This document shows positions 1 to 51,129 of a stretch of 64,000 nt of DNA, piece by piece. Origin of the DNA: an uncultured Clostridia bacterium (GTDB lineage: Bacteria; Bacillota; Clostridia; Christensenellales; Borkfalkiaceae). The stretch spans positions 34,089 through 98,088 of the forward strand of contig CANQUD010000001.1 in NCBI GenBank assembly GCA_947626935.1, read 5' to 3'. The translations under genes were made by a program, and so were the position numbers. The stretch's first letter is position 1. Each line of letters starts with the position of its first letter. Under the pieces are notes generated by a model. The model did not search any database, was not told the origin of the DNA, and saw only the letters and a program-made list of their open reading frames with translations.

Positions 1-1535
1 TCGACGAACTGCTCGACATCTTTCCGACCGCCGACATCGGCGACCTCGGCCCCATCCGTGTCTACACGTTTTTGGATCGCAAGCTGCAGCGCAAGGTTGA
101 AGAGGCAGAAGCCGATTCGGACGTCTGTGCGCTTGTCCGAGACAACAGGACGGACGGGTTGAAAGCGTTCTATTCGACATGCGGCGCCCTGAAACGACTT
201 CCCGCCTCTACGTTGAAGCCCCTTCTCGTCTACGGACCCGCCATCGAAGAGGACATCATCTGCCCCGCAACGCCGATCTTGGACGAAAAAACGGACTTCA
301 ACGGGTATTGTCCTGACGATGCGGGCGGCGCAAGCGGCAAATACATGAGCGCACGATACGCGCTTTCGCACAGCGTCAACATTCCCGCCGTCAAGATCCT
401 GAACACGATGGGCTGCGAAAAGGCGGCTGCATACCTCGACAGGATGGGACTGCATGTCGGGGAAGAGGACCTCTCTCTCGCCCTCGCGCTCGGCGGGATG
501 AAGGAAGGTTTTCCGCTCCCCGCACTTGCGGACGGATATGCCGTCTTTGCAAAACAGGGGGTCTATGCGCCCTCAAAAGTCATTTCCCGCATCGAAAACA
601 GCAAGGGAAAAGTCATTTACGAGTACAAACCCCGCGAAAACAGGGTCTTTTCCGAAGAAACGAGCTATCTCATCAACGACATGCTGAAAACTGCCGCCAA
701 GGAAGGAACGGCGAAAAAACTCAAAAATCTCCCCTATGACGTCTGTGCAAAGACGGGGACCGCGGAGGGCAAGAAAGACAATACAGATGCTTATACGATC
801 GCCTATACGTCGGAAGATACCGTAGCGGTCTGGCTCGGGAACAGGGACAACACGGAAATCGGGGCAACGGGCGGAGGGCTTCCCGCGAATCTCGCGCTCG
901 GGATCCTGAAAGAGATCTACGGGGACAGAGCGCCCGCTCCGTTTCCGCCCTGCGACGGCGTGGAAGCTCTCCCGATCGATATGCAGGAATACGAAAAAAA
1001 TCACAAAATTTTGCTCTCCGACCCAAACTCCCCCTTCCTGACAGACAGAAAAGAGCTGTTCAAAAAGAGCTTTGAACCGCTGGAGAGAAGTACGCGCTAT
1101 TCGGCGCCGAAGATCGAAAAACCGACGATTTCCGTCAAAAATGGGACCGTAAGCATAGTACTATGTCAGACAGAGTACTATGATTATGTCATAAAAAGAG
1201 AAAATCGCGGTAAGGAAACCACGATCTACAGCGGGAAATATCAAAGATGTATCAGCGACAATTCCGTAAAGGCGGGCGAAAGTTACCGCTACAGCGTCAC
1301 GCCCTACTATAAAGATATCGAGGGAGAGACCGTCTATCTCCCCCTCGTTCATATCGATCCAAGCGATTCGCTCCCCGAGAATTGGTGGAATCAGAATTTG
1401 ATGATCTCCCTCGAGGATAGAGCTTCTTCAACGAGCGCATCGATGTCGAGTTTCCTCTCCTCTTCCTCGATGAAGGAAAGTTTGGGGTGGATCGCGGGAA
1501 AATCGGGCAAAAAGACGGTGCAGCAGTCCTCATAG
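1..1535 (+). CDS. Penicillin-binding protein (class A type): transpeptidase domain plus C-terminal beta-rich domain; 5' end is outside the window
   Basis: Frame is open from nt 3. SxxK (STLK), SxN (SVN) and KTG (KTGT) motifs occur in the canonical order. The last ~145 nt run antisense to thiI. Confidence 0.85.
   Translation, partial: DELLDIFPTADIGDLGPIRVYTFLDRKLQRKVEEAEADSDVCALVRDNRTDGLKAFYSTCGALKRLPASTLKPLLVYGPAIEEDIICPATPILDEKTDFNGYCPDDAGGASGKYMSARYALSHSVNIPAVKILNTMGCEKAAAYLDRMGLHVGEEDLSLALALGGMKEGFPLPALADGYAVFAKQGVYAPSKVISRIENSKGKVIYEYKPRENRVFSEETSYLINDMLKTAAKEGTAKKLKNLPYDVCAKTGTAEGKKDNTDAYTIAYTSEDTVAVWLGNRDNTEIGATGGGLPANLALGILKEIYGDRAPAPFPPCDGVEALPIDMQEYEKNHKILLSDPNSPFLTDRKELFKKSFEPLERSTRYSAPKIEKPTISVKNGTVSIVLCQTEYYDYVIKRENRGKETTIYSGKYQRCISDNSVKAGESYRYSVTPYYKDIEGETVYLPLVHIDPSDSLPENWWNQNLMISLEDRASSTSASMSSFLSSSSMKESLGWIAGKSGKKTVQQSS
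1154..1190 (+). repeat. Quasi-palindromic dispersed element, copy inside the PBP coding region (two 17-nt units)
   Basis: CATAGTACTATGTCAGA CAGAGTACTATGATTAT. Its first 19 nt are identical to the reverse complement of 51111-51129. Confidence 0.85.
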
Positions 1536-2570: not shown

Positions 2571-3704
2571 TCATGCGCGGGACTGTAAAACTGTATTTTG
2601 ATATTCTCTTGCGGTCGAATTGAGGATTTCCGCCGCTTCTGTAATCTCCCGCTCCGTTGTGGCGGGCGAAAAACTGCACCGCAGGACGCCGTCAAGGACT
2701 TTTTCCGTATAACCGCACGCCGTCATGACGCGGCTGAAGCGGTTTTTGGAAGAACAGGCGCTACCCGTTCCCATGCACAGACCGCGATCCCAGAGCATGC
2801 GCTGCAGCACCTCTCCGCGCATTCCGACGGCGGAGACGGTGAGGATGTACGGCGACCCCTTTTCGGGAGAAAGTAGCGTAAAAATCTCCCGATCGAGAAG
2901 AGATATTAGCTTTTCCCGCATTTTTCCCAGCCTTTCGAGGTCGGATCTGACGGTTTTGAATTTCTTTTCGGCGGCATAGGCGAACACGACGATGCCGAAC
3001 GTGTTCTCCGTCCCGCTCCGCAGATTCCCTTCCTGTCCGCCCCCGAAGAGATACGGGTCCAAGGCGAGTCCCTTGCGCTTGAAGAGAGCGCCCGTGCCCT
3101 TGAGTCCGCCGATCTTGTGGGCGCTGACCGCATAGAGATCGACTTCCTGCGGCAGGACGAAGGACAATTTCCCGAACGCCTGCACGCCGTCGCTGTGGAA
3201 GAGCGTACGGGGATTTTTTTGCTTGACCGCCCTTGCGATCGCCCCAATGTCGTTGACGGCGCCCGTTTCGTTATTGACATGAACGACGGAGACGAGGCTC
3301 GTCTTTTCATCCACGAGATGCAGGATGCTCTCGCATCTCACGCTTCCGTCCCGCTCCACGGGAGCAAAACGGGGTTCGATCCCGCGATTTTTCAGCTCGT
3401 TGACGCTCGAATAGACCGCTGCATGTTCGCCCGCCGTCGTGACGACGTTTCCCCTCTTTCCGCCCGAAAAGATCGCTTGATTGTCGGCTTCGGTCCCGCA
3501 TGAGGTGAAAATGAGGTCAAATCTTCCCGTCCCGCCCAAGGTTTTCAGGAGAGTTTCCCGCGCTTCGCCGAGTTTTTTGGAAACGGCAAAACCCCCGCCG
3601 TATCTGGCAGAGGGGTTGAAATAAAGATCGGTCGTAAATTCTGCCGCGCTTCGGAGCGCCTCTTCGTCGGGACGGGTCGTGGCGGCATTGTCAAAGTAGA
3701 TCAT
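2571..3704 (-). CDS. Cysteine desulfurase (NifS/IscS family, PLP-dependent)
   Basis: MIYFDNAATT N-terminus, SAHKIGG PLP-lysine motif, GSACSS active-site loop. It lies directly upstream of thiI. Confidence 0.9.
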   Translation of the reverse strand: MIYFDNAATTRPDEEALRSAAEFTTDLYFNPSARYGGGFAVSKKLGEARETLLKTLGGTGRFDLIFTSCGTEADNQAIFSGGKRGNVVTTAGEHAAVYSSVNELKNRGIEPRFAPVERDGSVRCESILHLVDEKTSLVSVVHVNNETGAVNDIGAIARAVKQKNPRTLFHSDGVQAFGKLSFVLPQEVDLYAVSAHKIGGLKGTGALFKRKGLALDPYLFGGGQEGNLRSGTENTFGIVVFAYAAEKKFKTVRSDLERLGKMREKLISLLDREIFTLLSPEKGSPYILTVSAVGMRGEVLQRMLWDRGLCMGTGSACSSKNRFSRVMTACGYTEKVLDGVLRCSFSPATTEREITEAAEILNSTAREYQNTVLQSRA

Positions 3705-4306
3705 TCTCTCTCAAATTTGTTGATGCCCGCCGCCCGCACGAGGTATTCGAGGAGCATCTGTCTGCATTCTAAAATGTACAGGGTCTTTCCGAGCGATCCG
3801 CCGACAAGCAGGTAGATGAACTGCTTGTCCTCCGCGGGATACTTGTTCGGCGTCAAGAACTTCGGCTTATTGCCCTGCAGTCCGCGCAGGACATTGTCGT
3901 AGGAAGGTTTCTCGCAATATCCGATCTTCAGGATGGAATCCGCCGAGATCGTTCCGAAATACTTCCTCGATCTGCCGTTAAAGACCTTGGTGATACGGAG
4001 TTCGTCCTCGACAAAGGTATAGTCGTAACTGAGGTTGAATCTCTTTTTGATGAACCAAAAGACAACGCCGCCGCCCACAAAGGACAGGATAAAGATGAGC
4101 CAGACGCCGATGATGACGACTTTTTGGACGGTCTCCAGTTCTTCGTTTCCGATCACGCCCTGAAAGACGGACGTCGCAAAGAAAGCGGTCACGCCCGCGA
4201 CGACGAAACAGAGGATGGAAAGGACGAGAAAAAGGATATAGAACTTCTCTTCCGTCGCGGCGCGGCTGCAGACGGCGCTCTCTTCATATAAAAGGTCCCG
4301 TTGCAT
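3701..4306 (-). CDS. Hypothetical membrane protein (two N-terminal TM helices plus a soluble C-terminal domain)
   Basis: 201-aa ORF. Its start overlaps the carB stop and its stop overlaps the desulfurase start. Two hydrophobic helices are visible. I do not recognise the family. Confidence 0.6.
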   Translation of the reverse strand: MQRDLLYEESAVCSRAATEEKFYILFLVLSILCFVVAGVTAFFATSVFQGVIGNEELETVQKVVIIGVWLIFILSFVGGGVVFWFIKKRFNLSYDYTFVEDELRITKVFNGRSRKYFGTISADSILKIGYCEKPSYDNVLRGLQGNKPKFLTPNKYPAEDKQFIYLLVGGSLGKTLYILECRQMLLEYLVRAAGINKFERE

Positions 4307-7300
4307 CAGAATTCCACCTTCCCCTCATAAATTTTTCTGACATTGCCCGTCAGCGTAACGGAGCCGTCCGCATCGCAATGGACGGTCAGGTCCCCTCCGC
4401 GTACCTTGACGGTGATATCTGTACCCGATTTGCACAAGCCGTTCGACACGCAGGCGAATGCCGCAGCCGCCGCCCCCGTGCCGCTCGAGTACGTCTCACC
4501 GTTCCCCTGCTCCCACGTGCGCATCTTGATGGTCGCCTCGTTGACGACTCTGACGGCGCCGATGTCGGGCTTCTCCGCAAAGTTCTTGTTCTCCCCGATC
4601 GCGTCGGCGATGTCCTTCAGGGAGACTTCCTCCACGCGGTCGCAGAATACGATGTAGTTCTGTCTGCCGAGGTCGACGAGCACCGATCTCTCCGATTCGA
4701 CGCCCTTCCTGGGCAGTTTCCCCGCGGGGAGCTTCTTCAGACGCGGTTTCCCGAGTTCCACGCTTGCCGATGTGACGACGCCGCCGAAGGAGAATACTTT
4801 GAGTTCCTTCACTCCGTTCATCGTCTCGATCGTCATGGTCTCCTTTGGGACGATGCCCTTCTCGTACAGATATTTGGCTGCGCAGCGGATGGCATTGCCC
4901 GCGATCGCCCCCTCGGAGCCGTCTTGGTTGAAAATGCGCATCTTCGCATCCGCGACCTGCGATCTGGTCAGAATGACGATGCTGTCCCCGCCGATCCCGT
5001 AGTGTCGGTTGACGAAGTTCACGGCGAGGGACTCGGGACAGGTGATCTTCTCTTCCATGTCCTCGAAGAAGATGAAGTCATTCCCGCACGATTCGAGCTT
5101 GGTGAAGTCGAGCTTGGTCCGCTCGGTGCGGAGATGGTTGATATCCACAAGCTCGGTATTATTTTCGGTAAATTTGCTCGCGATGATGTCACAGAGCGCG
5201 TTTGCCGTATCGAGAGAGGTCAGGACGGTGATGCCGAGCAGGATCGCATGATGGTGCAGTTCGATATAGTCCTGAATGGAATCGACGTCCGTCTTGCCCG
5301 TATAGACGATGTAATCGATCTTTCCCTCGTCCATGAGCTTGCAGACCTGCTTCGTCGCCTTGAGACGTTCGACGACGGTGACGTCTGCGCCGAGGTCGGA
5401 GATGACCTTCGCCGTGCCCGCGGTCGCATACAGGCGGCAGCCGAGATCGGCAAATTTCTTTGCGATGGAGACAAGTTCGGGCTTATCCTGATCGTTGACG
5501 GTGAAATAGACGCCGACGGGCTTCTCCTTTGTCGGATGGCACATCTTGAAGCCCGCGGAGACGAGTCCCTTGAAGAGCGCTTCCTCGATTGTCTTGCCGA
5601 TGCCGAGCACCTCGCCCGTGGACTTCATTTCTGGCCCGAGCTGGGAATTGACGTCGTTGAGTTTTTCGAAGGAGAACACGGGGACTTTGACTGCAACGTA
5701 GGGAGAATCGGGATAGAGTCCCGTTCCGTAACCGAGTTTTTTGAGTTTTGCCCCCGCCATGATCTTGGTGGCAAGCTCTACCATGGGCACCCCCGTCACC
5801 TTGGAGATGTACGGGATCGTGCGGCTCGCACGGGGGTTGACTTCGATGACGTAGAGCTGGTTCCGATAGATGAGATATTGGATATTGATGAGACCCTTTG
5901 TCTTGAGTTCGAGCGCAAGTTGCGTGGAGACTTCCACGATCCTCGCCTTCATCGCATCGGAAAGATGGTAGGGCGGATAGACGGCGATGGAGTCGCCCGA
6001 ATGCACGCCCGCGCGTTCGACGTGTTGCATGACCCCGGGGATCAGCACGTCGACGCCGTCCGAAATGGCATCGACCTCAAGCTCGCTCCCCATCAGGTAT
6101 TTGTCGCAGAGGACGGGGTTCTCGATGCGCTGCGAGAGGATCACGTCCATATAGCGGGAAATGTCGTTTTCGGTGAAGGCGATCGTCATGTTCTGCCCGC
6201 CGATGACATAGCTCGGGCGGAGCAGGACGGGATAGCCGAGCGTCTCCGCGGCGCGGATCGCTTCCTCTTTCGTCATGACGGTCAGCCCCTTGGGACGGGA
6301 AATGGAGAATCGTTCCAAAAGTTCGTCGAAGCGTTCCCGATCCTCCGCCATGTCCACACTGTCGGCGCTTGTCCCGAGGATCCGCACCCCCGTCTTTGCG
6401 AGGTAGGCGCAGAGCTTGATCGCCGTCTGTCCCCCGAAGGTGATGACGACGCCGTACGGCTTCTCCACGTCGATGACATTCTGCACATCCTCGGGCGTAA
6501 GAGATTCGAAATAGAGCCTGTCCGCCGTATCGAAATCGGTGGAGACCGTCTCGGGATTGTTGTTGATAATGATGACTTCGTATCCGAGCTGTTTGAGCGT
6601 CCAGACGCAATGGACGGAAGAATAGTCGAATTCGATCCCCTGCCCGATGCGGATGGGACCCGAACCGATGACGATGACCCTCTTTTTGCGGGAACGTTCG
6701 ACAAATGGCTTTGCCTCGTCGTGCGCGGGGTCGTCGTACGTCGAATAGAAGTACGGGGTCGCGGCGCTGAACTCGGCGGCGCAGGTGTCGACCATCTTAA
6801 AGACAGCCCGTCTGTGCGCCGGCAGCTTCTGCCCCGAGAGTCCGAGGAGCGTCTTATCGGTAAATCCGAGCCGTTTCCCTTCCAGATACTCTGCGCGGGT
6901 GAGCTTTTTCCCCGTGATGTGCTTCTCGTAGCGGATGAGGTTGACAAACTTTTCGAGGAACCACTCGTCGATCTTGGTGACGCCGTAGATCTCATCGACG
7001 GGGATCCCCTTCTTGAGCGCCGCATAGACGGCGAAGAGCCGTTCGTCGGTCATCTTCGTGATCTCGATGCGGAGCTGTTCCTGCGTCATCTTTTCGAACT
7101 TCGGGTGGTCGAGCGTCTCGAGGGAGATCTCTGCGCCGCGGACTGCTTTCATGATCGCCTGTTCGAAGGACGATCCGATCGCCATGACTTCCCCCGTCGC
7201 CTTCATACGGGATCCCAACGTCCGCTTTGCGTACAAAAATTTATCAAAGGGCCACTTGGGGAGCTTCACGACGACATAGTCGATCGCGGGTTCGAAGCAG

Positions 7301-8331
7301 GCGTACGTCTTTCCCGTGACGTCGTTCTTGATCTCGTCGAGGGTGTAGCCGAGAGCGATCTTGGTCGCAACTTTTGCGATCGGATAGCCCGTCGCCTTGC
7401 TCGCAAGCGCCGAGGAGCGCGAAACGCGGGGGTTGACTTCGATCACGGCGTACTCGAAGCTGTCGGGATTCAGGGCGAACTGGCAGTTGCATCCCCCCTC
7501 GATGCCCAGCTCTGCGATGATGTTGAGAGATGCCGTGCGGAGCATCTGGTATTCCTTATCGGAGAGAGTGACGGCGGGTGCGATGACGACGGAATCGCCC
7601 GTGTGGATCCCGACGGGGTCGACGTTCTCCATGGAGCAGACGGTGATGACATTGCCCTTGCCGTCGCGGAGAACTTCAAATTCGATCTCCTTCCAGCCGC
7701 CGATGTACTTCTCGATGAGCACCTGCGTGATGGGAGAAAGCATCAGCCCGTTGTGTGCGATGAGCCGAAGCTCTTCCTCGTCATAGGCGACGCCCCCGCC
7801 CGCACCGCCGAGCGTGAACGCGGGACGGACGATGACGGGATAGCCGAGTTCTTCGGCGATCTTGACGCAATCGTTTTCGGTATAGGCGATATCGGAGGGA
7901 ACGACGGGTTCGGAGATCTTTTGCATGGTCTCCTTGAAGAGTTCTCTGTCCTCTGCCCGATCGATGGCATCGAGCTTGGTACCGATGAGTTTGACCCCCC
8001 ATTCGTCCAGAAAACCGCTCTTTGCGAGCTTGCAGCCCATCGTAAGCCCCGTCTGTCCGCCCAGAGAGGCGAGCAGGGAATCGGGACGCTCCTTGATGAT
8101 GATGCGCTTCAAACTCTCCTCGGTGAGCGGTTCGAGGTAGATCTCGTCGGCGAGCATCTTGTCCGTCATGATGGTGGCGGGGTTAGAGTTGCAGAGGACG
8201 ACGTTCATGCCCGCATCCTTGAGGACACGGCAAGCCTGTGCTCCCGCATAGTCGAATTCCGCAGCTTGTCCGATGACGATAGGACCCGAGCCGATGACAA
8301 GTACTTTCCTGATATCGCTTCTCAATGGCAT
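4306..8331 (-). CDS. carB: Carbamoyl-phosphate synthase large subunit fused to a C-terminal DapF-like (diaminopimelate epimerase fold) domain
   Basis: The first ~1070 aa are a full-length CarB (two ATP-grasp halves, MGS-like domain). The last 269 aa (nt 4306-5115) align along their length with the window's own DapF. Confidence 0.9.
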   Translation of the reverse strand: MPLRSDIRKVLVIGSGPIVIGQAAEFDYAGAQACRVLKDAGMNVVLCNSNPATIMTDKMLADEIYLEPLTEESLKRIIIKERPDSLLASLGGQTGLTMGCKLAKSGFLDEWGVKLIGTKLDAIDRAEDRELFKETMQKISEPVVPSDIAYTENDCVKIAEELGYPVIVRPAFTLGGAGGGVAYDEEELRLIAHNGLMLSPITQVLIEKYIGGWKEIEFEVLRDGKGNVITVCSMENVDPVGIHTGDSVVIAPAVTLSDKEYQMLRTASLNIIAELGIEGGCNCQFALNPDSFEYAVIEVNPRVSRSSALASKATGYPIAKVATKIALGYTLDEIKNDVTGKTYACFEPAIDYVVVKLPKWPFDKFLYAKRTLGSRMKATGEVMAIGSSFEQAIMKAVRGAEISLETLDHPKFEKMTQEQLRIEITKMTDERLFAVYAALKKGIPVDEIYGVTKIDEWFLEKFVNLIRYEKHITGKKLTRAEYLEGKRLGFTDKTLLGLSGQKLPAHRRAVFKMVDTCAAEFSAATPYFYSTYDDPAHDEAKPFVERSRKKRVIVIGSGPIRIGQGIEFDYSSVHCVWTLKQLGYEVIIINNNPETVSTDFDTADRLYFESLTPEDVQNVIDVEKPYGVVITFGGQTAIKLCAYLAKTGVRILGTSADSVDMAEDRERFDELLERFSISRPKGLTVMTKEEAIRAAETLGYPVLLRPSYVIGGQNMTIAFTENDISRYMDVILSQRIENPVLCDKYLMGSELEVDAISDGVDVLIPGVMQHVERAGVHSGDSIAVYPPYHLSDAMKARIVEVSTQLALELKTKGLINIQYLIYRNQLYVIEVNPRASRTIPYISKVTGVPMVELATKIMAGAKLKKLGYGTGLYPDSPYVAVKVPVFSFEKLNDVNSQLGPEMKSTGEVLGIGKTIEEALFKGLVSAGFKMCHPTKEKPVGVYFTVNDQDKPELVSIAKKFADLGCRLYATAGTAKVISDLGADVTVVERLKATKQVCKLMDEGKIDYIVYTGKTDVDSIQDYIELHHHAILLGITVLTSLDTANALCDIIASKFTENNTELVDINHLRTERTKLDFTKLESCGNDFIFFEDMEEKITCPESLAVNFVNRHYGIGGDSIVILTRSQVADAKMRIFNQDGSEGAIAGNAIRCAAKYLYEKGIVPKETMTIETMNGVKELKVFSFGGVVTSASVELGKPRLKKLPAGKLPRKGVESERSVLVDLGRQNYIVFCDRVEEVSLKDIADAIGENKNFAEKPDIGAVRVVNEATIKMRTWEQGNGETYSSGTGAAAAAFACVSNGLCKSGTDITVKVRGGDLTVHCDADGSVTLTGNVRKIYEGKVEF

Positions 8332-8332
8332 C

Positions 8333-9406
8333 TCACTTGTCCTCCTTTGCGGCTTTCATGTTCGTGACGAATCTGTCAAAGAGGAAGTTCGCGTCCTGCG
8401 GTCCGCTGCAGGCTTCGGGATGGAATTGCACAGTAAAGGCGTTCACAGCGGGATAGTCAACCCCCTCGCAGGTGCCGTCGTTGCAGTTGACGAAGGAGAG
8501 TTCCCCTTTTGCCTTTAAGCTGTCGGAGACGACTTCGTAGCCGTGATTTTGGGAAGTGATGTACACTCTGCCCGTCTCCAAATGCTTGACGGGCTGGTTG
8601 GCGCCGCGATGCCCGTATTTCATCTTGCGGGTCGTACCGCCCATCGCGAGTGCAAAGAGCTGATGCCCGAGGCAGATGCCGAAGATGGGAAGTTTCCCGA
8701 TCAATTTACGGATATTTTTGATGATCTCCGTATTTTCGGCGGGATCCCCGGGACCGTTGGCAAGCATGACGCCGTCTGCCTTGAGGCGGAACACCTCTTC
8801 GGCGGGATAGTGGGCGGGAACACAGATGACGCGGCAATTCCGCTTCAAAAGTTCATGTTCGATGTTGTGTTTGACGCCGAAGTCATAGAGAACAACAGTG
8901 TATTTCCCGTACTCGCCCGAGACCGTGATCTCGTCGGAAGTCACGGACTCAACGGCGTTTTTGACTCTGTACGCCCGCAGACGTTCGAAATCGGAGAAAG
9001 GCTTGAAGGAGATCGCGGCGTTCATGACCCCCGCTTCCCGCACAGTGCGGGCGATCTCACGAGTATCGACGCCGTAGATCGCGGGGATGCCCTCTCGCTT
9101 GAGATATTCTTCCAAAGTCAGCTTGCAGCGGAAGTTGGAAGGGGTCGTGCACCGTTCCCGAACGACATAGGCGCTCGCATGGCACTTGATGCTCTCAAAG
9201 TCCTCGGGGATGACGCCGTAGTTCCCGATGAGCGGGAAGGTCTGCATGATGATCTGACCGTAATAGCTGGGATCGGTGAGCGTCTCGATGTACCCCGTCA
9301 TTCCCGTCGTGAAAACAAGCTCCCCGACGGTCTCCCGCTCTGCGCCGAAAGATCTTCCCTCGAACACACGCCCGTTCTCAAGCGTTAAATATGCCTTTTT
9401 CTCCAT
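8333..9406 (-). CDS. carA: Carbamoyl-phosphate synthase small (glutaminase) subunit
   Basis: TGMTGYIETLTDPSYYGQI motif. Class I amidotransferase ICLGHQ nucleophile elbow. Adjacent to carB. Confidence 0.95.
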   Translation of the reverse strand: MEKKAYLTLENGRVFEGRSFGAERETVGELVFTTGMTGYIETLTDPSYYGQIIMQTFPLIGNYGVIPEDFESIKCHASAYVVRERCTTPSNFRCKLTLEEYLKREGIPAIYGVDTREIARTVREAGVMNAAISFKPFSDFERLRAYRVKNAVESVTSDEITVSGEYGKYTVVLYDFGVKHNIEHELLKRNCRVICVPAHYPAEEVFRLKADGVMLANGPGDPAENTEIIKNIRKLIGKLPIFGICLGHQLFALAMGGTTRKMKYGHRGANQPVKHLETGRVYITSQNHGYEVVSDSLKAKGELSFVNCNDGTCEGVDYPAVNAFTVQFHPEACSGPQDANFLFDRFVTNMKAAKEDK

Positions 9407-9505
9407 AAGCTCTCCCTGTGTAAAAAAGTCAAAGTTCGGGCAGTCAAAGCCTCAAAAGGGCAAAATTTTTTTGCCGTTTTCGGCGGCAAATTCTCTATCG
9501 TTCCG

Positions 9506-9535
9506 ATTATACCACAAACGCCGCTGCTCCGTCAA
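9506..9535 (-). promoter_or_regulatory. Sigma-70-type promoter for carAB
   Basis: Minus strand reads TTGACG, 18 nt, TATAAT, about 100 nt upstream of the carA ATG. Confidence 0.6.
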
Positions 9536-9617
9536 GCGTAGGCGCGAAATTCCGCAAATCCGTTTCTGCTCAATTTATTGCTTGAAATATTCAACATATT
9601 GCGAAAGAATGGTTATT

Positions 9618-9638
9618 TATGCCTGACATAGTACTATG
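9618..9638 (-). repeat. Quasi-palindromic dispersed element, copy upstream of the carA promoter
   Basis: Plus strand reads TATGCCTGACATAGTACTATG. 16 nt are identical to the 51114-51129 copy. Confidence 0.85.
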
Positions 9639-9671
9639 CAAATCGTTCAAAACGGCATTTTATTATGGAAT

Positions 9672-9693
9672 CGGCGGCGCTGAAGCGCCGCCG
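9672..9693 (-). terminator. GC-rich hairpin downstream of the 9697..10161 gene
   Basis: CGGCGGCGC-tgaa-GCGCCGCCG is a perfect 9-bp stem. The flanking U-tract is weak. Confidence 0.45.
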
Positions 9694-9696
9694 TGT

Positions 9697-16832: not shown

Positions 16833-18329
16833 CTACCTCCGATAATTTTTTATCATTTTTTTGTATTTCGCCATAGAACGCCCGATGGGTCTGTCGAGGC
16901 GGTACAGCCAATTCCCCCCCTGTGTCCCGGGGAGATTCATGCGGGCTTCGTTGCCCAGCCCCAAGATGTCCTGAATGGGGACGATCGCGAGCTTCGCCCT
17001 CGATGCAAGGGCGAGACGGACGAACGCATCGGGGAAATTTTCCCCGTTCTTCATGAGGCGAATTTCTACCCCGCTCTCCTCGAGCGCCATCGCGAGCCGT
17101 GCGCGGAGCAGGATGAAGTCCTCCGCCGCCAGCGAATCGACATACCCCTTGACGGTGTCGTTGTCGTGCGTTCCCGTATAGCAGACGCTGTTTTCGTGGA
17201 TGTTTTTGGGGAGAAATTCGTTGTCGGGGTTGCCGTCGAAGGCAAAGAGCAGCACCTTCATGCCGGGGAAGCCCGTCTTTTTGAGGAGCGCCTGCACGCC
17301 GTCGTCGACGATGCCGAGGTTTTCCGCGATAATGCGGCTGCGGGCTTCTCTGCTGATGCCGCCGAAGAGCTTTTCCTTGGGACCGTCCGCCCACCTTCCG
17401 CCGATGGCGTTCTCCGCATCGGCGTCGATCTCATAGTAGCGGTCGATGCCGCGGAAGTGGTCGATGCGGACGAGGTCATAGGTATCGAGCGCCGCCTGCA
17501 GACGTTGCGTCCACCATGCGAACTTCTCCCTTTCGTGCGCTTTCCAGTCGTAGACGGGGTTGCCCCAGAGCTGTCCCGTCTCCGAGAAATAGTCAGGCGG
17601 GACCCCCGCGACTTTGACGGGGTTGAGGTCCTCGTCGAGCTGAAAGAGTTCGGGATGCGCCCAGACGTCTGCGCTGTCGTAGGCGACATAGAGCGGAAGG
17701 TCTCCGATGATCTCGATCTGCGAACGGCAAAGACTGTGCAGTTTCTCCCATTGCATCCGAAAGAGATACTGCACGAACTGCCAGAAGAGATATTCCTCAT
17801 GATGCTCCGTGCGGAGCGTCTCGAGCGCCTCGGGCGTGTGGCGCATCAACGGCTCGTCCCAATCGTGGAATGTCCCGCCGTAGACCGTTTTGGCGGTCAT
17901 GAACAGGGCATAATCCTCGAACATGCCCTTTTTGACGAACGCGCGGAAGTCGTCGCTGTCGAACGCAAAGCGGGAAAAGGCAAGCCGAAGCGTCGCGTAG
18001 CGTTCCTCATAGATAGCGCCGTAGTCGACCGCGGTCGCGCCCTTATACTTCTCGCGAAGGTCTTTGAGTTCCTTCCGCGTCAGAAGCCCCATCCGTCCGA
18101 GTTCGTCGAGGTCGATAAAATAAGGGTTGCCCGAAATGCAGGACACCGATTGATACGGGCTGTCGCCGTATCCCGTCTGCACAAGGGGAAGGACTTGCCA
18201 GTATTTGACGCCGTTTTTCACGAGCGTGAGCGCAAACTTCGCTGCATCCCGTAAATTTCCGATCCCGTACTTCCCGGGGAGGGAAGAAATGTGGCATAAG
18301 ACGCCTGCGCTCTTTGTTACATTCTCCAT
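16833..18329 (-). CDS. malQ: 4-alpha-glucanotransferase (amylomaltase, GH77)
   Basis: GVLCHISSLPGKYGIG N-terminus, WGNPVYDW, RIDHFRG and GTHDND motifs. Confidence 0.92.
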   Translation of the reverse strand: MENVTKSAGVLCHISSLPGKYGIGNLRDAAKFALTLVKNGVKYWQVLPLVQTGYGDSPYQSVSCISGNPYFIDLDELGRMGLLTRKELKDLREKYKGATAVDYGAIYEERYATLRLAFSRFAFDSDDFRAFVKKGMFEDYALFMTAKTVYGGTFHDWDEPLMRHTPEALETLRTEHHEEYLFWQFVQYLFRMQWEKLHSLCRSQIEIIGDLPLYVAYDSADVWAHPELFQLDEDLNPVKVAGVPPDYFSETGQLWGNPVYDWKAHEREKFAWWTQRLQAALDTYDLVRIDHFRGIDRYYEIDADAENAIGGRWADGPKEKLFGGISREARSRIIAENLGIVDDGVQALLKKTGFPGMKVLLFAFDGNPDNEFLPKNIHENSVCYTGTHDNDTVKGYVDSLAAEDFILLRARLAMALEESGVEIRLMKNGENFPDAFVRLALASRAKLAIVPIQDILGLGNEARMNLPGTQGGNWLYRLDRPIGRSMAKYKKMIKNYRR

Positions 18330-18339
18330 AGACGATCTC

Positions 18340-19526
18340 TCATTTCAGAAGCGCTGCGATCCGTCGCATCGCTTCCGCCGTATTTTCATGTGTGCCGAAG
18401 GCGGTCAGACGAAAATACCCTTCGCCGTTCTTCCCGAACCCGCAGCCCGGGGTCCCGACGACGTTCGCCTTCTCCAAAAGGTAGTCGAAAAAGCTCCAGC
18501 TATCCATTCCGTTCGGACATTTCATCCAGATGTAAGGGGAATTTTTGCCCCCCGTGTACCAGATCCCGAGCGTATCCAAAACATCGGAGATGATCTTTGC
18601 GTTCCCGCGGTAGTATCCGATGCTCTCGGAGATCTCCCTTTCCCCTTCCTCGGTAAAGACAGCCGCCGCCCCCATCTGCGTGATGTAGGACGTGCCGTTG
18701 AACTTCGTGGACTGCCTTCTCGCCCAAAGGCGGTTGAGGGACGCTCCGTCCCTGACGAGCTGTTCTGGCACGACCGTATAGCCGCAGCGGACGCCCGTGA
18801 ATCCCGCCGTCTTGGAGTACGAGCAGATCTCGATGGCGCATTCCTTTGCCCCCTCGACCTGATAGATGCTGCGGGCGAGGGTGTCGTCGACGACGAAGTA
18901 CTCATAGGCGGCGTCGTACAGGATGATGGCGTCCTGTTCGAGCGCGTAGTCCACCCAGACTTTGAGCTGTTCCTTCGTATAGGCGGCTCCCGTCGGGTTG
19001 TTGGGAGAACAGAGATAGATGATGTCCGCCTTCACATTCTTGTCGGGCATGGGAAGGAACCCGTTCCCCTCGTTCGCGTCGGCAAAGAGGATCTTTCTGC
19101 CCGCCATGATGTTGGTGTCGAGGTAGACGGGATAGACGGGATCGGGCACGAGGACGACGTTCTCATCGGACAGGATATCCAAGATGTTGCCGCAGTCCGA
19201 CTTTGCGCCGTCCGAGATGAAGATGTCATGCTTTCCGAGCGTCACACCCTTGCGGGCATAGCTCCCGAGAATGGAATCGAGGAGCAGATCGTAGCCGTAG
19301 CAGGTCTGGTCGGGCGCATAGCCCTTGAAGGTCTCCGTTTTCCCCATGTCGTCGACGGCGGCGTGCATCGCGCGGATGACGGCGGGGGCAAGCGGTCTCG
19401 TGACGTCCCCGATGGAAAGACGGATGACGTCCTTTTCTGGATGAGCCTTCTTGTAGGCGGCAGTCTTGGAGCCGACCGTCGAAAAGAGGTAAGAATCTTT
19501 GAGATGTAAGAAGTTCCGATTGATCT

Positions 19527-19530
<4 letters not shown>
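18340..19530 (-). CDS. dapL: LL-diaminopimelate aminotransferase
   Basis: N-terminus [16 protein letters not shown] and [12 protein letters not shown], with a [13 protein letters not shown]-lysine block, are typical of DapL. Its start forms an ATGA overlap with the pyrG stop. Confidence 0.85.
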
Positions 19531-21131
<1,601 letters not shown>

Positions 21132-21201
21132 GGATCACCTCGTTGGTTTGATTCGGAATTGTTTGACAGCCCGCCGAAATACGGCGGAAGAAGAAACGAA
21201 G

Positions 21202-22044
21202 TCAGATGTCCGCTTCGCCCTTGAAGGCAAACGCGGCGGGACCCGTCATGAGTACGGATCCATCCGTCACGGTGACTTTGAGATCGCCGCCCTTCAGGCG
21301 GAGCGTGATGGATGTGTTCTTTTCGCAGAAGCCGTTCAGGACCGCCGCGACCGCCGAGGCACATGCCCCCGTTCCGCAGGCGAGCGTTTCCCCGCTTCCG
21401 CGCTCCCAGACACGCATTTTCAGTTGATTTTTGCCCAAAACTTGCACAAATTCGGTGTTGACGCGCTCGGGAAAGGACGGATGATGCTCAAAGAGCGGTC
21501 CGATCTTTTCGAGGTCCAGTCCGTCGGGGTCGCCGCCGAAGAGGACGCAGTGGGGATTCCCCATGCTCACACAGGTGACGCGGTATTCCCTTCCCCCGAC
21601 CTCGAGCGGCACGTTCACCGCGCGTTCCCCCGAAAAGTTCGCGGGGATCTTTGCGGGACGAAGCTCGGGACTTCCCATATCGACCGTAAAGACCTCGGCG
21701 TGTCCGTTTGAGACCTCTTCGACCTTCAGCGTCTTGACGCCCGAGAGGGTCTCTACGGTCAAAACGTCCTTATGGATGCCCTTGATGTCATAGAGGAATT
21801 TCCCGACGCAGCGGACGCCGTTCCCGCACATCTTCCCCTCGCTTCCGTCGGCGTTGAACATGCGCATCCTGCCGTCCGCGGTCTCGCTCTTGCAGACGAG
21901 GATGACGCCGTCGCCGCCCACCGAGAAGTGACGGTCGGACAGCCTTACGGCGAGGGCGGACGGGTCGGACGGCATCCAGTCGAAGCAGTCGAAATAGATG
22001 TAGTCGTTCCCGATGCCGTGCATCTTGTAAAAGGTCCGTTTCAT
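21202..22044 (-). CDS. dapF: Diaminopimelate epimerase (catalytically intact)
   Basis: Start MKRTFYKMHGIGNDY at ATG 22044 (ATGA overlap with the purA stop). Both catalytic Cys motifs are present (MCGNG, ACGTGA), as is GNPH. Confidence 0.92.
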   Translation of the reverse strand: MKRTFYKMHGIGNDYIYFDCFDWMPSDPSALAVRLSDRHFSVGGDGVILVCKSETADGRMRMFNADGSEGKMCGNGVRCVGKFLYDIKGIHKDVLTVETLSGVKTLKVEEVSNGHAEVFTVDMGSPELRPAKIPANFSGERAVNVPLEVGGREYRVTCVSMGNPHCVLFGGDPDGLDLEKIGPLFEHHPSFPERVNTEFVQVLGKNQLKMRVWERGSGETLACGTGACASAVAAVLNGFCEKNTSITLRLKGGDLKVTVTDGSVLMTGPAAFAFKGEADI

Positions 22045-23315
22045 TTCATTTTGACGTATTCGTCGCGCTCTGCGCCCACGGAGACGTAGGTGATGTTGCA
22101 ATCGCAGAGTTTTTCGAGAAGATGGATGTAGTCAAGCGCCTCTTTCGGAAGGTCGGAGGGCTTTCTGCATTTGGAGATGTCGCAGTTCCAGCCCTTGACT
22201 GTCTTGAAAACGGGCTTGCAGTACGGGAGAAGGTCGGGATAGGGAAATTCATGGAGGATCTTGCCTTCAAGTTCGTATGCGGTGCAGATCTCCAGTTCTT
22301 CATGTCCCGAGAGGATGTCAAGCTTCGTGAGGGCGACCTCGTCCGCTCCCTGACAGCGGATGCCGTACTTGGAAGCGACGGCGTCAAAGGGACCGACCCG
22401 CCTCGGTCTGCCCGTGGCTGCGCCGTATTCCCCGCCCGCTTCGCGGAGCTTCTCCGCCTTCTCGCCGAAGTATTCCGCCGTGAAGGGTCCCTCGCCGACG
22501 CAGGTGGAATATGCCTTCATGATTCCGATGCTCTTGTCGAGCTTGAGTTCGGGCACACCCGCCCCGATGGGAGCATAGGCGGCGATCGTCGAGGAGCTGG
22601 AAGTGTAGGGCAAAATGCCGAAATCGACGTCGCGGAGCGCTCCGAGCTGGGCCTCGAACATGATCTTCTTGCCCGCCGCATGCGCCGCGCCGAGGTAAAG
22701 TCCCGTATCCACGATGTAGTCCTTGAGGGGTTCCCCGTATGTCTTGAAGTACTCTTCGATCTCGGCGACCGTGACGGGCGCATGCCCGTATCCGCCCGCG
22801 ACGGTGAGATTTTTCCACTCGACAACGTCGGGGATCTTGCTCTTCAGAAGCTCGGGATAGAGAAGTTCCCCCATGCGGAAACATTTCTTCATGTATCTGT
22901 CGGCATAGGCGGGAGCGATCCCTCTCCGCGTGGAGCCGAACTTCTTGCCCGCAAGTCTGTCCTCTTCGAGACAGTCGAGGAGCACGTGATAGGGCATGGT
23001 GATGACAGCCCTGTCGCTGATCTTGAGGTTTTCGGGGGTGATACGGATGCCCTTCTTGCGCAGACGCCCGATCTCCTCGGTCAAATGCTTGATGTCGATG
23101 ACCATGCCCGGTCCGAGGACGTTGACGACCTTCTCGCGGAGAATGCCCGAGGGCAGAAGGTTGAGGATGAATTTCCCCCGTTCGTTGATGACGGTATGCC
23201 CTGCGTTGTTGCCGCCCTGATAGCGGCAGACGATATCGTAATCGGCGGAGAGCAGGTCGACCATGCGCCCTTTCCCTTCGTCGCCCCAATTGATCCCGCA
23301 GATGGAAGTAAGCAT
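22041..23315 (-). CDS. purA: Adenylosuccinate synthase
   Basis: GINWGDEGKGRMVD P-loop, GGNNAGHT and TTRGIGP-like blocks. 424 aa. Confidence 0.96.
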   Translation of the reverse strand: MLTSICGINWGDEGKGRMVDLLSADYDIVCRYQGGNNAGHTVINERGKFILNLLPSGILREKVVNVLGPGMVIDIKHLTEEIGRLRKKGIRITPENLKISDRAVITMPYHVLLDCLEEDRLAGKKFGSTRRGIAPAYADRYMKKCFRMGELLYPELLKSKIPDVVEWKNLTVAGGYGHAPVTVAEIEEYFKTYGEPLKDYIVDTGLYLGAAHAAGKKIMFEAQLGALRDVDFGILPYTSSSSTIAAYAPIGAGVPELKLDKSIGIMKAYSTCVGEGPFTAEYFGEKAEKLREAGGEYGAATGRPRRVGPFDAVASKYGIRCQGADEVALTKLDILSGHEELEICTAYELEGKILHEFPYPDLLPYCKPVFKTVKGWNCDISKCRKPSDLPKEALDYIHLLEKLCDCNITYVSVGAERDEYVKMK

Positions 23316-51108: not shown

Positions 51109-51129
51109 TATGTCTGACATAGTACTATG
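51109..51129 (-). repeat. Quasi-palindromic dispersed element, copy between the clpB stop and its terminator
   Basis: Plus strand reads TATGTCTGACATAGTACTATG. It contains the perfect 12-nt palindrome CATAGTACTATG. Confidence 0.85.

Follow-up and report, generated by a model that had tools for sequence, protein, structure and literature searches.

A carbamoyl-phosphate synthetase large subunit fused to a putative DapF-derived pseudoenzyme domain in gut Clostridia

Results

A 64,000-nucleotide stretch of contig CANQUD010000001.1 from an uncultured Clostridia bacterium (the window, meaning the whole stretch analyzed) carries a carB gene, coding for the large subunit of carbamoyl-phosphate synthetase (CPSase), that continues in frame into a sequence resembling diaminopimelate (DAP) epimerase, DapF. 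An open reading frame (ORF) check of the window found a single stop-free ORF of 1341 amino acids (aa) on the minus strand at 4306-8331, with its stop codon at 4306-4308, as an earlier note on this DNA had claimed. This carB::dapF' ORF matches both a CarB equivalog and a DapF model. Immediately upstream on the same strand, at 8333-9406, lies carA for the glutaminase small subunit, with 70% identity to carA of the relative L001, in which CPSase_sm_chain and GATase domains were found.

Residues 1-1062 (5146-8331) form a canonical CarB body with two ATP-grasp halves, an oligomerisation domain and an allosteric domain, according to Pfam, NCBIfam and alignment to Escherichia coli CarB (1bxr). In NCBIfam, residues 1-1053 scored 1440 bits against the CarB equivalog PRK05294 (NF003671; cut-off 599), and the score against TIGR01369 was 1404 bits (cut-off 1027). 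Pfam located CPSase_L_D1, D2 and D3 within the same residues, together with the MGS-like allosteric domain at residues 952-1038 (5218-5478; PF02142, E 1.2e-10). The body is thus marked as CarB by an equivalog score above the cut-off, the full domain set and the adjacent carA, and its ratio of nonsynonymous to synonymous substitution rates (dN/dS) between the window and the relative L004 was 0.05. The full domain set and the adjacent carA are shared with E. coli CarB (1bxr/1jdb), and alignment to it showed that K954, T974 and T977 of the nucleotide phosphate site and E783 and D791 of the ornithine site are retained, whereas K993 is replaced by Arg, N1015 by Tyr, T1017 by Gly and E892 by Val. 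The PDB entry for E. coli CarB has 1073 aa, which agrees with the figure of about 1070 aa given in the earlier note. Characterized CarB proteins end at the allosteric domain (~1073 aa), unlike the window protein, which carries 267 extra residues of DapF fold.

These extra residues (1075-1341; 4309-5109, minus strand) were matched by PF01678 in two stretches (E 2.9e-39; 134 bits, cut-off 34.7), as the earlier note had expected of such a search, and residues 1075-1339 scored 193 bits against the DapF model TIGR00652 (cut-off 115). Also as reported in the note, the whole length of the tail aligns with the stand-alone DapF of the window (36% identity over 279 residues, E 1e-62), a similarity that is far beyond chance as judged from the alignment. 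The closest sequence match among solved structures was DapF 2otn (E 6e-47). The AlphaFold2 (AF2) model of residues 930-1341, a structure prediction that the note had proposed, gave the domain a confidence (pLDDT) of 88, with a predicted template modeling score (pTM) of 0.66. In a Foldseek search of the PDB the best matches of this model were all DapFs, headed by 2otn (E 2e-31, template modeling (TM) score 0.80), followed by DcsC, PhzF and proline-racemase-like proteins. The tail belongs to the DapF/PhzF fold, as it has two DAP_epimerase repeats that pass the gathering score and a predicted structure like that of DapF. At the junction NTELVDINHLRTERTKLD (residues 1058-1075; 5107-5160, minus strand), the end of CarB runs into the start of DapF almost without a linker; the CarB model stops at residue 1053 and the DapF model begins at 1075. 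The junction motif NTEL..I is invariant across the family, and pLDDT there is 63-70. The stand-alone dapF at 21202-22044 (minus strand; TIGR00652, 287 bits) keeps both catalytic Cys residues, the GNPH motif and all pocket residues, and presumably codes for the working epimerase of this genome. The tail shares the two-lobed fold with this protein and with solved DapFs (2otn, 1gqz/2gke), but those are free-standing with both Cys, whereas the tail is fused and has both Cys and the distal-carboxylate residues replaced.

The catalytic and pocket positions, numbered as in Haemophilus influenzae DapF, have changed extensively in the window copy. The first catalytic Cys (Cys73) is Ala1144 (GCG, 4900-4902) and the second (Cys217) is Ser1283 (AGC, 4483-4485), exactly at the codons given in the earlier note; the change of GNPH to GRQN (N157R, P158Q, H159N; 4657-4668) was likewise reported there. 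The note did not mention three further changes: Asp1256 at N190 (4564-4566) and Gln1275 at R209 (4507-4509), both positions being distal-carboxylate ligands in DapF, and a shortened, scrambled loop before GRQN (residues 1194-1220; 4672-4752), about 10 residues shorter than in relatives. This loop differs in each of the window, L004 and L026, and is the one low-confidence stretch of the domain, where pLDDT drops to 57. Retained features include the motifs GND, FNxDGSE, xGN and GTG, and the motif ITCPES (5029-5046), which is typical of the fused proteins and missing from free DapFs. Among the five DAP distal-site residues (N64, N157, N190, R209 and E208), which bind the distal L-center of DAP in DapF, N64 and E208 are kept and the other three are changed (N157R, N190D and R209Q). 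Both catalytic positions are Cys in 110 of 114 free DapFs of ordinary length. With neither catalytic Cys left, the distal-carboxylate residues replaced and the loop shortened, the alignment indicates that the tail cannot be a two-Cys epimerase. Sensing of DAP or lysine by this copy appears unlikely as well, since N157R, N190D and R209Q would break the distal-carboxylate site.

The fusion is not confined to the window. Scanning one genome per species yielded 157 relatives, of which 80 loci were kept, all from gut or rumen Clostridia metagenome-assembled genomes (MAGs) labeled Gallimonas, Borkfalkia, Christensenellaceae, Oscillospiraceae, Acutalibacteraceae, Evtepia or 'Eubacterium sp.'. A continuous frame of about 1340-1414 aa was present in 57 of the 58 species-level genomes with enough upstream sequence, the exception being L079, and full-length fusion proteins are found in public records, such as WP_296967502.1 (1342 aa; a cluster of 279 members). 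The tail gave dN/dS values of 0.004-0.2 in every pair tested (0.18 for the window and L004). These values are far below 1, so the tail is under purifying selection. The survey of orthologues suggested by the earlier note therefore bears out the fusion that it had claimed, with the same continuous frame in 57 other species genomes and the architecture widespread among gut Clostridia relatives.

A mis-assembly, a missed stop or a recent fusion remnant drifting neutrally might produce such an ORF, and three relatives (L001, L003 and L079) do have one in-frame stop in carB, while the pocket of the window copy is degraded. However, the same unbroken frame recurs in 57 other independent assemblies, dN/dS is far below 1, and the GC content of the tail (0.59) matches that of the CarB body (0.58). 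The interrupted copies also surfaced because short products alone were listed, whereas full-length proteins are on record. Such an artefact is very improbable, and these comparisons indicate a genuine fusion that is conserved among many species of gut Clostridia. The interruptions themselves lie at different codons: a TGA at a Gly codon in L001 (7953-7955), a stop at a Lys codon in L003 (~7941-7943), and a broken frame at about 5281 in L079. Errors of sequencing or assembly, or recent pseudogenisation, probably account for them. As a result of such stops, gene callers emit 'MGS + DapF' proteins of ~450-500 aa, which receive the NCBI name 'diaminopimelate epimerase, partial'. A split CarB or programmed recoding had first been suggested by the stops in L001 and L003 and by a word-indexed protein search that listed only products of up to 523 aa, though the collection holds hundreds of proteins of 1340-1350 aa. 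It was rejected, as the stops fall at different codons, the genome loci that extend far enough upstream are uninterrupted except for L079, and full-length proteins are recorded. The short list was a ranking or selection effect, so such length distributions are not readable as domain architecture.

Across 82 relatives, the fused domain has a site pattern of its own. Position 73 is Ala in 79, Gly in 2 and Asp in 1, and never Cys. The rest of the pocket is close to invariant: N64, N75, E208, G218 and T219 are conserved in 82/82, G74, H159 and N190 in 81/82, P158 in 80/82, N157 in 79/82 (with GNPH kept in about 79/82) and R209 in 78/82. C217 is conserved in 79/82, with Ser found only in the window, L004, L026 and L082. 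The motifs FNQDGSE and ERGNGET beside the pocket are invariant clade-specific changes absent from 110 free DapFs, and ITCPES (T in 77/82, C in 73/82, S in 81/82) is variable in the same number of canonical DapFs. A catalytic Cys relocated to position 76 was considered and rejected, as Cys occurs there in only 7/82. The window groups with L004 inside this Ala-type clade and shares with its other members (L005-L083, WP_296967502.1) the in-frame fusion point at the CarB C-terminus, Ala at Cys73, and the ITCPES, FNQDGSE and ERGNGET motifs. Typical members, however, keep Cys217, GNPH, N190 and R209 and lie in an arginine operon, whereas the window has lost all of these, with five pocket positions and Cys217 changed. 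A broadly degraded pocket occurs only in the window, L004 and L026. Lesser changes are seen in L017 (R209K), L020 (R209V), L049 (N157D and R209L) and L082 (C217S). On this comparison the window copy is an atypical, degraded member of its family. In an exhaustive search, the few clusters that make up the fused Ala-type clade ranked before thousands of ordinary DapFs, and no stand-alone Ala-type DapF was found; three short Ala-type matches begin inside the CarB junction and look like fragments.

The gene order argD-argF-carA-fusion was observed in 50 loci, and the full order argG-argC-argJ-argB-argD-argF-carA-fusion in L084, L089 and L094. In the longer loci an amidase, an acyl-ACP thioesterase and a 173-aa membrane protein are encoded upstream of argG. 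The window shares these flanks, minus the ~7-kb arg block between the 173-aa membrane-protein gene and carA (8542-15091 in L089 and 11173-17736 in L094). Synteny with these two loci and the junction sequences identify the intergenic scar at 9407-9696 (minus strand) as the counterpart of argG-C-J-B-D-F. No arg genes were found anywhere in the 64-kb window, so its fusion, unlike that of most relatives, does not occupy the last position of an argGCJBDF-carAB operon. A promoter scan found a promoter-like TTGACG-18-TATAAT in the scar at 9535-9506, and no regulatory RNA (PyrR, T-box and similar) was found upstream of carA in the window by Rfam at gathering thresholds. A perfect 12-nt palindrome, CATAGTACTATG, occurs three times in the window (1154-1165, 9627-9638 and 51118-51129; none expected in shuffled sequence), embedded in a shared motif of ~22 nt, TTATGYCWGACATAGTACTATG. 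Of the three copies, one is found ~90 nt upstream of the carA promoter, at a place where L004 and L020 carry similar sequences too. The palindrome could be an operator or a small repeat element.

The same kind of arg deletion was found in L004, L013, L017, L020 and L049. Breakpoints differ among L013/L017, L049 and the window/L004/L020, and the arg-deleted loci are scattered among arg-linked relatives on the CarB tree; on these grounds the deletions are independent. Among the loci scorable for both arg linkage and pocket state, the 50 arg-linked ones all have intact pockets, while the unlinked ones comprise 2 intact and 5 altered (Fisher p = 5e-6, uncorrected for phylogeny). One of the two unlinked loci with an intact pocket is still beside argG-argJ. 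The sisters L013 (intact pocket) and L020 (R209V) both lack the arg block, suggesting that deletion comes first and pocket change later. Among the scored loci, then, the pocket is changed only where the arg block is gone, and its conservation by this comparison is contingent on the arginine operon. The operon in L084, L089 and L094 is without argH; a scan of the relatives' loci for an argH signature found none, and these loci are too short to be informative on this point.

CarB-DapF fusions with both Cys and a full pocket also exist. P0126 (1349 aa; L085/L086, 10001-14050) is encoded as carA-carB::dapF alone in an Oscillospiraceae MAG and is not arg-linked; P0129 (L087, 7874-10384) is an odd protein of 836 aa with half of CarB, MGS and DapF, and no carA nearby; P0124 (L088, 16-1128) is followed by a DapL-like aminotransferase gene. 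They share the CarB-MGS-DapF order with the window but keep the catalytic Cys pair and the full pocket, with a DapF domain outside the Ala-type clade, and are probably true bifunctional enzymes, judging from these residues. In a neighbor-joining tree of DapF domains, the Ala-type tails make up a single long-stemmed clade, apart from the both-Cys tails, which cluster with clostridial DapFs of the ordinary kind (the window's own among them). The fusion may thus have had more than one origin, or the Ala-type clade may have diverged fast after losing catalysis. Because both-Cys fusions exist, the module was apparently not yet dead when it was recruited, and its first Cys seems to have been lost afterwards, as a derived change. 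The pseudoenzyme module that the earlier note saw recruited beside the allosteric domain thus holds as to a predicted dead DapF fold directly after MGS, but probably not as to its state at recruitment. DapF with both Cys was also found in other fusions in public data (P0270, P0214, P0142, P0135 and P0136), namely a DapL-like aminotransferase-DapF of 687 aa, a GNAT acetyltransferase-DapF of 427 aa, and truncated CarB-like/ATP-grasp proteins without MGS of 1046, 692 and 666 aa.

Two further regions of the window were compared with the relatives. At 4306 the carB stop and the start codon that follows have one base in common (ATGA). Three genes follow at 3701-4306, 2571-3704 and 1391-2695, the first coding for a 201-aa membrane protein whose relatives match DUF6106. 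This block of DUF6106, a NifS-like cysteine desulfurase and ThiI is common to the window and the nearer Ala-type relatives, and is absent from the Oscillospiraceae-like half of the family. The second region, at 16833-23315 on the minus strand, is a tight run of purA, the canonical dapF, pyrG, an aminotransferase gene and a 4-alpha-glucanotransferase gene. We take the aminotransferase to be LL-DAP aminotransferase-like by its sequence; it has 55% identity to the product of the gene upstream of carA in L082. With its dapF, this run places working DAP-pathway genes ~13 kb from the fusion. In L082, a deep-branching member with C217S and no arg genes upstream, the DapL-like aminotransferase gene (464-1723) lies directly upstream of carA, an arrangement that may be left over from an earlier association of carAB with genes of the DAP pathway.

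Discussion

Our results suggest, with a probability that we put at about 0.55, that the window ORF codes for a functional CPSase large subunit running straight into a DapF-derived, non-epimerase domain, and that the pocket of this pseudoenzyme domain serves the synthetase in the arginine pathway, the domain being most likely a ligand sensor beside the allosteric domain. DapF is a two-lobed clamp that closes on its ligand. In the arg-proficient relatives, the domain would be a non-catalytic ligand-binding module, and its pocket would read an amino acid of DAP-like size, namely DAP, ornithine, citrulline, lysine or arginine. A ligand of this size is proposed because all DAP contacts are retained there, and the other four candidates are near-isosteric with parts of DAP. 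The clamp motion might pass a signal to the adjoining allosteric domain, tuning carbamoyl-phosphate supply for arginine synthesis. In the genome of the window, the locus has lost its arg genes, and carAB is presumably used for pyrimidines. The pocket would there have been dismantled (C217S, N157R/P158Q/H159N, N190D, R209Q and the shortened loop), and the domain would persist as an appendage under structural constraint, needed for instance in folding, stability or oligomerisation of the enzyme, while the separate canonical dapF at 21202-22044 would do the epimerase work.

A bolder and more tentative proposal, which we consider possible but short of even odds, is that the Ala-type domain in arg-proficient gut Clostridia is a new CPSase allosteric module, an ex-epimerase clamp that binds ornithine/citrulline or DAP/lysine and sets carbamoyl-phosphate flux, with the window as a natural knock-out; bolder still, it might be a one-base enzyme for a missing arginine step such as ArgH. 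An extra domain that replaces lost canonical allosteric sites was rejected as a clean story, since most nucleotide- and ornithine-site residues of E. coli CarB are kept in the window. The module would therefore be an addition rather than a replacement.

Several observations weigh against the sensor interpretation. We infer both the sensor mechanism and the ligand from comparison. With the canonical allosteric sites largely intact, an extra sensor is not obviously needed, and the AF2 model gives no confident prediction of the MGS-DapF interface (pTM 0.66; junction pLDDT 63-70). The association with arginine genes comes from a Fisher test that ignores phylogeny, with arg loss scored at the level of the locus. 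The both-Cys fusion P0126 lies outside an arg operon, so the fusion itself needs no arginine context. Finally, the conservation of C217 (79/82) and the near-invariance of Ala73 are also the pattern expected of a one-base enzyme.

This last point leads to the main rival, which we rate as unlikely and below the sensor: the Ala73/Cys217 domain may have altered catalysis, as a beta-eliminase, dehydratase or proton exchanger acting on an arginine-related substrate, in the extreme case as an ArgH substitute, with the window copy as its dead descendant. Proline-racemase homologues that lost one Cys became hydroxyproline dehydratases. A member of the same superfamily among the fold matches, trans-3-hydroxy-L-proline dehydratase (6r76), shows that a two-Cys racemase fold can take on a new role after losing one Cys, but it has 12-13% identity, is free-standing and has a demonstrated new reaction, whereas none is known or evident for the Ala-type domain. 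Besides position 73 being nearly always Ala instead of drifting, the invariant clade-specific changes beside the pocket and the restriction of pocket changes to arg-deleted loci would suit an enzyme, and argH is the sole arginine step missing from the argGCJBDF-carAB operon, although argH may lie elsewhere in these genomes. However, the DAP-contacting residues are all as in DapF, both in identity and in spacing. Since DAP lacks a beta leaving group, one base would give no net reaction on it, and argininosuccinate is ~four atoms too long for an unchanged DAP pocket by structural reasoning that was not computed; it is for these two reasons that we rate this rival lower. In the window copy, moreover, both Cys are gone.

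We consider it comparably improbable that the domain is purely structural, contributing to dimerisation or stability of the synthetase and binding no ligand in any member. DapF is dimeric in several species. Purifying selection persists with a broken pocket (dN/dS 0.18 for the window and L004), the fold is confidently predicted, and ITCPES and the junction motif are kept in the window, so a structural role remains a good description of the present state of that copy. It leaves unexplained, however, the 12 near-invariant pocket positions in 50 arg-linked species and the change of the pocket only after loss of the arg block in independent lineages. Less probable again is the version of the earlier note, which has the window's domain sensing DAP or lysine and linking the supply of carbamoyl phosphate to cell-wall or lysine metabolism. 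It would agree with the DapF ancestry, the position beside the allosteric domain, the intact DAP pocket of the relatives, and the DapL-like aminotransferase gene upstream of carA in L082 and directly after the fused DapF in L088. But N157, N190, R209 and Cys217 are all replaced in the window, and pocket conservation tracks arginine genes instead of DAP or cell-wall genes, so that this part of the note is unlikely to hold.

CPSase regulation is textbook allostery, built on the E. coli and human enzymes. For a DapF fold that modulates another enzyme through contact, there is a precedent in the E. coli RppH-DapF complex (6d13; PMC6061791, PMC4227774), although DapF is there still an active epimerase and acts in trans, on an RNA pyrophosphohydrolase. 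No paper describing a CarB-DapF-like architecture was found in the literature, in keeping with the earlier note, which did not recognise it as a described one; a GapMind preprint of 2026 covers DapF2 but not the CarB-DapF fusion, and public records name the fusions plain CarB and their fragments 'diaminopimelate epimerase'. As far as we could find, the Ala-type CarB-DapF-like family is undescribed, and it is widespread in gut Clostridia.

Deletion of the arg block predicts arginine auxotrophy for the organism of the window, unless arg genes lie elsewhere in its genome. The present naming as plain CarB or 'diaminopimelate epimerase' could mislead reconstructions of lysine/DAP and arginine metabolism in gut MAGs. 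The interest of our results lies mainly in the family and its natural experiment, the window copy being a decayed form. Abundant gut Clostridia hold a large unannotated family in which CPSase has gained a whole ex-enzyme domain at its allosteric end, and the lineages that lost the arg block, which let the pocket decay yet kept the domain, serve as a natural control that offers a testable hypothesis with ready pairs of intact and decayed proteins.

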